The notes below the pieces were generated by a model. The model did no database searches, was not told the DNA's origin, and was given only the letters and a program-made list of their open reading frames with translations. Positions 35,562-36,809 of a DNA stretch of 64,000 nucleotides are shown piece by piece (the stretch's first letter is position 1; each line of letters begins with the position of its first letter). The stretch is from a virus (Duplodnaviria > Caudoviricetes), in IMG/VR virus record IMGVR_UViG_3300002220_000003, positions 20,137 to 84,136 of that record; one strand, 5' to 3'. Position numbers and translations under genes: made by a program.

Positions 35562-36809
35562 TTACCCTCCTATAGTTTGAGTTACAAGATTGATAGATTG
35601 ATTTTCCTTTGATGGCGGCGGAGGCGATCCCACTTCCATCGACAAAGGAATCCCTGCATTATCAATCGTTGCTTTAAAATCACGCAAGAAAAGCCGCCTC
35701 AATTCAGGCGGGAGTTTCTCAAGAACCTGCAATAATGCCCTGAAGGAATTTACTCCTTCGATCAAATGGGTCAATGAACGATGATACAAAACATATGCCA
35801 GACCATGAGCATTATGGGAATATATAAATCGATTTCCTTTTATTGTAGGATCTTGAGATAGTTTATTAAAAATCTCAAGATATGCCTTCGCGCCCTCAAG
35901 TTTTATATCAACGTCATTATCAAAAACCCCAAACTCGAGAACTCCAAGAGCAAGATCAATATCGCCCGGGATGGCTTCAAGACCTAAAGCCAAAACCCTT
36001 TTTGCATCATCTCTTTGCCTTACATGAAGATGCAAACGAAACAGGGTAAAATAAATTGATTTGTTAAAAAGATCCGGATCTATATTTTCTCTTGCTGCCA
36101 GATACCTTTCGCCCCACTTAATAGCTTCTTGATTGTCCGTTCCACCTTCGGCATTTAATTGACAAAGATAAAACATGGCATCATAATCATGAATATTTTC
36201 CTCAAGCCTTTTTCTAAGCAGGGTATTTGTTCTTGTATATTTTACTTTCTTCTGATCAGCGGTGAGATCATATCCATAATGATTGATATAGATAAATTCA
36301 CACATCACCGACTCAAGACTTCCTCTTATAATCTGAGGATTATTATGAACAATTCCCTGATAGCGCAAATCACCTTTTCGAGATAATCTTGTGGAATTAA
36401 ATGTCATGATCTCGTGGCCCTTCTGGATATCATGAATTACCACGGCGCTGGCAACATGCGTATCGGGAATATTTTCAAGGAAAGAGAAAAGCTGTTCTCT
36501 TGTCTTTTCTTTATCTTGTATATAAGATTTGAATTCTTCATCGGCATCGATGATCAAAACCCACTTCCCTTCGGCATAATCGATACTTTGATTACGATGA
36601 ATCGAGAAATTGTTTTCCCAAGGATGCTCAAAAATACGGGCTCCATACGACCGGGCGATTTCCATCGTCCTGTCTGTAGAGCCCGTATCAACAATTACAA
36701 TCTCATCGACAATACCCTGAATCGACTTCAGGCATTTCTCGATGTTCCGCTCCTCATCTTTTACCATGAGGCAAGCGGATAGAAAAGGTCTTCCCGGATT
36801 CTTTTCCAT
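35562..36809 (-). CDS. GT2 glycosyltransferase with TPR-like C-terminus (SunS/flagellin-GT-like)
   Basis: LSACLMVKDEE, IVIVDTGSTDRT, WENNFS.HRN, VLIIDADE, INHYGY; helical repeats follow. Confidence 0.92.
   Translation of the reverse strand: MEKNPGRPFLSACLMVKDEERNIEKCLKSIQGIVDEIVIVDTGSTDRTMEIARSYGARIFEHPWENNFSIHRNQSIDYAEGKWVLIIDADEEFKSYIQDKEKTREQLFSFLENIPDTHVASAVVIHDIQKGHEIMTFNSTRLSRKGDLRYQGIVHNNPQIIRGSLESVMCEFIYINHYGYDLTADQKKVKYTRTNTLLRKRLEENIHDYDAMFYLCQLNAEGGTDNQEAIKWGERYLAARENIDPDLFNKSIYFTLFRLHLHVRQRDDAKRVLALGLEAIPGDIDLALGVLEFGVFDNDVDIKLEGAKAYLEIFNKLSQDPTIKGNRFIYSHNAHGLAYVLYHRSLTHLIEGVNSFRALLQVLEKLPPELRRLFLRDFKATIDNAGIPLSMEVGSPPPPSKENQSINLVTQTIGG

Follow-up and report, generated by a model that had tools for sequence, protein, structure and literature searches.

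Which substrate does a glycosyltransferase (GT) serve when its gene sits in the middle of a phage head operon? We address this question for a stretch of 64,000 nucleotides (nt), here called the window, which comprises bases 20137 to 84136 of IMGVR_UViG_3300002220_000003, a complete 84,136-bp IMG/VR virus record with direct terminal repeats. A preliminary description of the window had noticed a family 2 glycosyltransferase (GT2) with a tetratricopeptide repeat (TPR)-like tail among the capsid genes and had proposed that it glycosylates the capsid or tail. We present here a computational analysis of this gene and its product, P0001, and favor late-expressed glycosylation of a virion protein by the GT, at a probability of about 0.6.

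The minus strand (-) carries all genes of the GT region. The GT gene and the parts of its product, in nt and amino acids (aa), are as follows:

35562-36809 (-), GT2-TPR glycosyltransferase P0001, 415 aa (open reading frame [ORF], Pfam GT2, PDB profile search, and fold)
36279-36782 (-), GT-A catalytic domain, aa 10-177 (AlphaFold2 [AF2] secondary structure and invariant columns)
35658-36260 (-), TPR-like helical domain, aa 184-384 (AF2 helices and fold alignment)
35565-35657 (-), disordered linker and conserved C-terminal peptide (...INLVTQTIGG) (AF2 and homolog alignment)

Pfam GT2 (PF00535) matches P0001 at aa 11-94 with an E value of 1.1e-17 and 64.9 bits, against a cutoff of 23.3. The DxD motif, for metal and nucleotide-sugar binding, reads D88-A-D90-E91-E92 (nt 36534-36548), and the DTGS motif lies at aa 41-44 within VDTGS, with D41 as the nucleotide-binding aspartate. 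In an alignment of 37 homologs that are 36-55% identical to P0001, the residues D41-T-G-S, D88-A-D-E-E, H155-N, and H177-Y-G-Y-D are invariant. D41 and D88-A-D90 also line up with the equivalent motifs in SunS and in GmaR, the flagellin O-GlcNAc transferase and MogR anti-repressor of Listeria monocytogenes (PMC9638930). The AF2 model has a predicted local distance difference test (pLDDT) score of 91 and combines the GT-A domain (aa 10-177) with ten helices (aa 184-384) and a disordered tail (pLDDT below 50 at aa 403-415); it is compact and globular, and no long hydrophobic segment is evident in the translation. The 415-aa GT2 with an intact DADE motif and a TPR-like tail is therefore as first described.

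The closest characterized relatives are enzymes that glycosylate proteins or peptides. A single-sequence phmmer search of the PDB ranked the GmaR GT domain at 4e-29, ThuS at 5e-19, and SunS at 6e-16, with the next best match at 2.6e-4; a family-profile search gave 8e-45 for GmaR, 3e-34 for SunS, and 3e-28 for ThuS, with the next GT at 2e-9. Foldseek with the P0001 model matched ThuS/SunS at 3e-21 over about 390 columns, versus 5e-10 for TarS. Fold comparison with VIA gave Z scores of 26.6 for SunS and 24.6 for ThuS over 277-331 aligned residues, versus 17.3 for matches to the GT-A fold only; the AF2 GT-A domain aligns with many GT2 structures at Z 15-17. The best NCBIfam match is the SunS family, and P0001 does not reach the cutoff of the SunS equivalog TIGR04195 (86.6 bits versus 350). 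No lipid-carrier or polysaccharide GT is among the best relatives. By sequence profile and fold, P0001 is a GT-A/GT2 enzyme (CAZy GT2-like, inverting) of the GmaR/SunS/ThuS protein/peptide-glycosyltransferase clade and, by analogy, would transfer its sugar to such an acceptor. The protein/peptide type given in the preliminary description agrees with these searches, and the comparison to SunS and flagellin GTs that it proposed returned SunS and ThuS as the best whole-length fold matches.

VIA comparison of the helical half gave Z scores of 14-15 for consensus TPR proteins, MamA, and the TPR of OGT, and also an alignment with the TPR segments of SunS and ThuS. This half is termed TPR-like because no Pfam TPR family matches P0001 itself at E≤0.01; many of its homologs carry precomputed Pfam TPR families. 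The residues at aa 184-384 are presumed to be the module that binds the acceptor protein. GT homologs recurrently end, after a disordered proline/charged linker, in a hydrophobic-hydrophobic-S/T-x-x-hydrophobic-Q/H/N pattern. This C-terminal peptide could be a tethered docking strand, a pseudo-substrate, or a self-glycosylation site.

The GT gene lies within the genes for virion assembly, which are arranged in the window as follows:

60833-61480 (-), terminase small subunit (PHROGs/Pfam)
57755-59143 (-), terminase large subunit, TerL (PHROGs/Pfam)
45901-47343 (-), portal (PHROGs/Pfam)
39906-45896 (-), 1996-aa ORF between portal and scaffold
38431-39201 (-), head scaffolding protein (phrog_206, 7.6e-36)
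37339-38271 (-), major capsid protein, epsilon15/BPP-1 GP7 type (phrog_212, 3e-78; Pfam PF20911)
36821-37297 (-), cement protein, 158 aa, jellyroll (AF2 model and fold match)
36810-36826 (-), ribosome-binding site AAGGAG, overlapping the cement stop codon, 7 nt before the GT ATG (read from the sequence)
35276-35557 (-), 93-aa protein, coupled to the GT stop
34773-35261 (-), head-tail adaptor Ad1 (phrog_477, 3.8e-40)
32941-33522 (-), 193-aa Ser/Thr-rich protein between tail terminator and tube (composition)
31539-32915 (-), tail tube protein, 458 aa (Pfam Phage_tube_2)

After the 93-aa gene, the order is head-tail adaptor, head closure, Neck1, tail terminator, 193-aa gene, and tail tube; by PHROG and Pfam matches, the block that encloses the GT is a canonical morphogenesis module. 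The GT gene is separated from the cement gene by 11 nt (36810-36820) and from the 93-aa gene, which begins at 35557, by 4 nt (35558-35561), exactly as the preliminary description had it. A second Shine-Dalgarno site, AGGAGGG, within the last codons of the GT lies 8 nt ahead of the ATG of the 93-aa gene. The absence of a visible promoter or terminator held up as well: between 31 and 40 kb, promoter-like matches (25 versus 20.5±4.8 in shuffled sequence) and terminator-like matches (10 versus 7.7±2.4) show no excess over shuffled sequence, and neither short gap flanking the GT contains a consensus match of either kind. By this arrangement, the GT is laid out for co-expression with the capsid genes. 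One terminator-like hairpin of 6 pairs, 5 of them G-C, with a T-rich tail lies within the GT coding region near its 3′ end (35694-35711, minus strand); such sites are no more numerous in the region than expected by chance. In relatives, homologs of the 1996-aa ORF align piecewise, at 34-49% identity.

The upstream neighbor, called a cement gene from the outset, has no Pfam or PHROG match, and its identity comes from its fold. The AF2 model is a jellyroll (pLDDT 73; below 50 in the loop at aa 97-110), and its best match is the BPP-1 cement protein 3j4u_H (Z 11.3 over 118 aa, root-mean-square deviation 2.7, 24% identity), against a background of about 8. The second match is the Carin1 mature-capsid chain 8cjz_A (Z 10.2). 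A BPP-1-type cement fold fits this position because the capsid protein is of the epsilon15/BPP-1 GP7 type.

The GT keeps its place in related phages. In 48 of the 80 best capsid relatives in IMG/VR, capsid and cement are followed by a GT, in most cases directly after cement, and in nearly all of the 48, cement adjoins the GT (or a tandem GT pair) upstream. Every locus with a capsid identity of at least 63% and more than 1 kb of downstream room has the GT, in the order capsid, cement, GT. At 18 loci, with capsid identities of 61% or less, no GT was found even with a family hidden Markov model. The cement gene is kept at most of these GT-minus loci; cement is therefore ancestral and the GT a clade-defining addition right behind it. 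The adaptor follows cement more closely, at 0.2-0.75 kb, in GT-minus L140, L142, and L147, loci where both genes were found. Pairwise distances of the GT rise with those of each structural gene (r 0.8-0.98); the GT is thus a stably inherited part of the module that has diverged along with it, rather than a gene that comes and goes. Taken together, the comparative evidence that a protein GT belongs to the virion module is strong; that for virion glycosylation itself is circumstantial.

The order capsid, small protein, GT is seen again in the deeper lineages L034, L035, L053, L054, and L069. The tube gene directly follows the GT in L037, L038, L047, and L048, and wherever the other flank is covered, the tail terminator precedes the GT; a cement homolog was detected at none of these four loci, and at L048 almost nothing separates the putative capsid gene from the adaptor gene. 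The slot between terminator and tube, which holds the 193-aa gene in the window, is occupied by the GT itself in L038, L047, and L048. Two tandem GT2-TPR paralogs stand directly after cement in L012 (2593-3813 and 3807-4991), L095 (8529-9788 and 9789-11120), and L117 (1667-2854 and 3132-4313), which hints at two acceptors or two sugars. Other clades encode fusions: GT2(-TPR) joined to an N-terminal GT1 (702 aa, L040:9047-11155), in a gene that sits between neck genes and a 340-aa phrog_30644 protein in the L040 group, and GT2(-TPR) joined to GT4 and an S-adenosylmethionine (SAM) methyltransferase (934-953 aa; L075:8078-10939, 953 aa). The neighbors of more distant viral GT homologs are mostly Neck1, major head, portal, and protease genes, and some of these homologs lie among replication genes.

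An alignment-based scan found relatives of P0001 encoded in at least 539 IMG/VR stretches; a scan of IMG/VR with P0001 alone as a single query gave no matches. A tblastn search with P0001 against 50,697 phage records returned 19 matches at E≤1e-5, none a full-length homolog (best coverage, 60%). The nearest capsid relatives in that collection, at less than 50% identity, are a Microcystis phage, phiCbK-like phages, and BPP-1-like phages. Many uncharacterized proteins combining GT2 with helical repeats occur in phages and giant viruses in BFVD. In IMG/VR, one GT-bearing relative, G006 (the record of L016), carries a provirus classification; temperate members may therefore exist in the clade.

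A search of 185,579 representative bacterial and archaeal genomes gave best matches of only 28-50% identity, mostly with partial coverage; the full-length GT family (35-55% identity) is essentially viral. The 148 genes within three genes on either side of 32 bacterial homologs include 22 Flagellin_N, 16 Flagellin_C, 10 FliS, and 7 FliW. Given these flagellin-locus neighbors, the phage GT family is best read as a viral offshoot of flagellin-locus glycosyltransferases. No homolog of the window's structural genes was found near any of 79 bacterial GT homologs, and those GTs are therefore not prophage copies of the window module.

An island of roughly 10 kb between TerL and portal contains the following genes:

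47340-57397 (-), nucleotide-sugar island as a whole (Pfam, NCBIfam, PHROG)
47340-48260 (-), second short-chain dehydrogenase/reductase (SDR) (Pfam/NCBIfam/PHROG)
48257-49417 (-), FemAB-family protein (Pfam/NCBIfam/PHROG)
49390-50370 (-), RmlB/LegB-like 4,6-dehydratase (Pfam/NCBIfam/PHROG)
51722-53005 (-), PseC/LegC-like aminotransferase (Pfam DegT, 1e-96)
53130-53714 (-), NeuD/PglB/VioB-family acetyltransferase (Pfam/NCBIfam/PHROG)
53973-54812 (-), LpxD-like N-acyltransferase (Pfam/NCBIfam/PHROG)
55493-56482 (-), possible divergent GT-B, GT1/GT4-like (Atlas lead, TM 0.80-0.82)
56651-57397 (-), short UDP-glucose/GDP-mannose-dehydrogenase-like protein with viral likenesses (Atlas lead)

The final gene of the island and the start of portal share 4 nt. 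From terminase to portal, the island is syntenic gene for gene in the near-complete relatives G001 and G002. The genes at 54790-55500, 55493-56482, and 56651-57397 have no Pfam, NCBIfam, PHROG, or PDB sequence match; the latter two are conserved in G001 and G002, and 55493-56482 also in G004. A Rosetta-stone link between the GT-B-like gene at 55493-56482 and the fused GT1 domain found in other phages was rejected for lack of sequence similarity. P0001 is the only Pfam GT2 in the 84-kb genome, which has no Pfam GT1. In 12 GT-bearing records of the capsid clade, DegT occurs in 9, two SDR genes upstream of the head module in 1, and the NeuD-like acetyltransferase in 1; neither DegT, the SDR pair, nor the NeuD-like acetyltransferase is present in the 2 GT-minus records tested. 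Pgl-, Leg-, Pse-, and Vio-type pathways offer a basis for predicting the product. By analogy with them, the island would make an N-acylated 4-amino-4,6-dideoxy-hexose, perhaps aminoacylated by the FemAB protein; a FemAB gene is unusual in a sugar pathway, which suggests an aminoacylated amino sugar. The island, absent from the preliminary description, is the strongest supporting context for glycosylation.

As for the acceptor, the cement protein is the leading candidate, by its adjacency to the GT in nearly all GT-bearing relatives of the capsid clade and by its exposed, disordered loop at aa ~97-117, in which S/T/G/A residues abound and both length and sequence are hypervariable. The capsid protein, with variable S/T/A/G patches near aa 148-157 and 236-245, is the second-ranked candidate. 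Third-ranked candidates are the tube, which has S/T/A-rich insertions, and the 193-aa protein; S+T content is 21% in each, versus a genome mean of 11%, which ranks both with the most S/T-rich products of the genome, the tube gene adjoins the GT in other clades, and the richest window of the 193-aa protein has 9 S/T in 15 residues. The 193-aa protein has no PHROG family and no PDB sequence match, and its homolog in L098 (8662-9132) adjoins the GT in the head module.

The reading that we favor starts from what is observed, namely, the class of the enzyme, its intact catalytic motifs, the layout of the operon, the conservation of synteny, and the presence of sugar genes alongside the GT. From these we infer an acceptor, a linkage, a donor, and a biological benefit in the following way. 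The GT would be made late, on the same transcript as the scaffold, capsid, cement, and neck proteins. It would act as a soluble, metal-dependent enzyme whose TPR-like half binds a folded virion subunit, as flagellin glycosyltransferases bind theirs, and would transfer sugar to Ser/Thr of at least one virion protein in the cytoplasm, before or during assembly; in the flagellin analogy, too, the sugar is added in the cytoplasm, before export. The leading acceptor would be the adjacent cement protein via its exposed hypervariable loop, with capsid, tube, and the 193-aa protein as alternatives. The donor would probably come from the phage island, where a host nucleotide sugar would be converted to the nucleotide derivative of an N-acylated and perhaps also aminoacylated 4-amino-4,6-dideoxy-hexose; otherwise it would be a host UDP-sugar. 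The GT-B-like enzyme (55493-56482) may extend the glycan, and a repetitive surface of the virion would thereby become coated with glycan. For the capsid or tail glycosylation first proposed, the enzyme class, a layout for co-expression with capsid genes, and the identity of the cement protein all count in favor, and the individual acceptors stand as candidates; the role of initiating enzyme, also first proposed, is likewise putative, the GT-B-like gene being a lead. The full sequence of events, in which a large and wholly uncultured clade of tailed phages, with hundreds of IMG/VR contigs, makes an N-acylated or aminoacylated 4-amino-4,6-dideoxy sugar from the genes between terminase and portal and a flagellin-type GT2-TPR attaches it to the cement loop, is offered tentatively.

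Several points weigh against this reading. The phage is uncultured, and a glycosylated virion protein is a prediction; gene position is circumstantial evidence of function. The substrates of the closest characterized enzymes are host proteins (flagellin) or peptides destined for secretion rather than virions. The cement loop is about 20 aa with 5 S/T in GT-bearing phages versus 16 aa with 2.6 S/T in GT-minus phages, a difference with overlapping ranges and confounded by phylogeny. Mirror-tree correlations are not partner-specific (GT versus scaffold, 0.82; capsid, 0.83; cement, 0.83). An apparent mirror-tree preference for cement (partial r 0.70) was rejected, having disappeared with controls, under which scaffold, capsid, cement, adaptor, and tube were tracked equally. 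The island could serve another purpose. The complete GT-bearing genomes G009 and G010, from other clades, lack DegT; the GT is therefore not dependent on the island and presumably can use host sugars.

Other acceptors would account for part of the evidence. The bacterial relatives of P0001 are overwhelmingly flagellin-linked and GmaR modifies flagellin (PMC9638930), so the target might be a host flagellin, pilin, S-layer, or other surface or filament protein, whose modification could keep out superinfecting phages that depend on flagella or pili, or could change motility. The provirus G006 makes lysogenic conversion conceivable in the clade; the record studied here, which bears direct terminal repeats, has no such classification in IMG/VR, lysogeny genes not having been specifically looked for. 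A host target is unlikely on the gene's setting: the GT sits in the late head operon, translationally coupled and with no promoter signal of its own, it has kept its placement by cement or tube genes across deep phage divergence, coupling to portal also holds for the sugar island, and a phage would gain little from modified flagella just before lysis. A small or cytoplasmic acceptor fares less well. The acceptors of SunS and ThuS are small peptides, the GT is immediately followed by a coupled 93-aa gene, and the GmaR scaffold can moonlight (PMC9638930); P0001 might thus target a nonvirion phage or host cytoplasmic protein or a glycocin-like peptide, or serve mainly as a TPR assembly chaperone, with catalysis in second place. 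We regard this as improbable. The 93-aa protein has a conserved N-terminal 30 aa followed by a P/Q/E/K-rich low-complexity tail, no Cys, and no glycocin-like features, and its homologs, found downstream of the GT at several loci, are also present at the GT-minus loci L152 and L153. P0001 scores far below the SunS equivalog cutoff, and the invariant catalytic residues argue against a purely structural role. A glycocin locus was rejected, as the neighborhood has neither a Cys-bearing peptide nor an ATP-binding cassette (ABC) exporter, nor were thiol-disulfide genes found nearby.

A nonprotein acceptor, with GT and island acting in phage DNA hypermodification or on a polysaccharide or lipid-linked glycan, is very improbable. 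GT2 is a broad family and phage GT-A enzymes that glycosylate DNA exist, but those described are TarP/JGT-like, with no TPR in the text, and lie beside C5-methyltransferase/5mYOX genes (bioRxiv 10.1101/2023.12.21.572611); DNA glycosylation was rejected on these differences in build and context. The closest relatives, by 19-35 orders of magnitude, are protein/peptide GTs of the same GT-plus-TPR build; for polysaccharide and teichoic-acid GTs, the match is confined to the GT-A core; and the compact globular model, a GT-A plus helical-repeat protein without an evident long hydrophobic segment, likewise counts against a nonprotein acceptor.

To our knowledge, a few mycobacteriophages are the only phages in which glycosylation of the virion by phage-encoded enzymes has been demonstrated; there it alters recognition by antibodies. 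If glycosylation of virion proteins by the P0001 family is correct, a great many environmental phages add a sugar coat to their capsids or tails by means of a different enzyme family, derived from flagellin modification, some with unusual sugars of their own making. Virion glycosylation would then be a widespread trait of environmental phages and not an actinophage oddity, and it would be enzymatically unrelated to the mycobacteriophage systems. It would bear on phage stability, adsorption, evasion of recognition by hosts and grazers, and the design of therapeutic phages. The GT, its acceptor, and the sugar pathway would also make a compact, soluble, cytoplasmic protein-glycosylation kit that can be tested in E. 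coli.

A literature search found no paper on a flagellin-type GT2-TPR in a phage head operon, and the known systems each share some of its features. The cement protein resembles BPP-1 cement (3j4u chain H) in its jellyroll and in the position of its gene directly after an epsilon15/BPP-1-type capsid gene; the window protein differs in having an extra disordered, hypervariable S/T/G-rich loop. We know of no glycosyltransferase beside the BPP-1 cement gene. Giant viruses encode nucleotide-sugar synthesis and GTs and glycosylate their own capsids independently of host machinery. The chloroviruses and mimiviruses combine capsid glycosylation with virus-encoded sugar pathways (PMC9614988). Look-alikes with GT2 and helical repeats are found in many giant-virus and phage proteomes (BFVD), but the giant viruses are eukaryotic viruses with other capsid proteins. 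GTs of F1 mycobacteriophages (Che8, Rita, and others) are reported to glycosylate capsid proteins and provide a glycan shield (Freeman et al. 2023, as cited in PMC11256854 and PMC12582341), with the GT genes near the 3′ end of the genome (PMC11256854). The window GT, in contrast, lies within the head operon by the cement gene and is accompanied by a phage-encoded amino-sugar pathway. No mycobacteriophage is among the tblastn matches to P0001 at E≤1e-5 in the 50,697 phage records, and the mycobacteriophage GTs are therefore not detectably homologous to P0001.

The glycocin S-glycosyltransferases SunS and ThuS (PDB 7msn, 7msp, and 7msk) are the best whole-length fold match, spanning GT-A and TPR, and share the DxD motif and H-x-G-Y-D with P0001 at about 20% identity. 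Their context differs: the neighbors in the window are cement, capsid, the Cys-free 93-aa protein, and neck genes, with no Cys precursor, exporter, or thiol-disulfide oxidoreductase. SunS is itself encoded by a prophage, SPbeta. GmaR (PDB 22ao, GT domain) is the closest solved sequence relative of the catalytic domain, covering aa 3-203; beyond the GT domain, PDB searches found no sequence match between P0001 and GmaR. Both have an N-terminal GT-A followed by TPR, and GmaR acts on a folded, polymer-forming protein in the cytoplasm. GmaR has 637 aa with a linker and an anti-repressor domain (PMC9638930), whereas P0001 has 415 aa and ends after the TPR-like domain. The flagellin context is found in the bacterial relatives only, and the P0001 gene lies in a capsid operon, not in a flagellar regulon; if its product does glycosylate the virion, a bacterial flagellin-modification enzyme has been recruited to another repetitive protein polymer.

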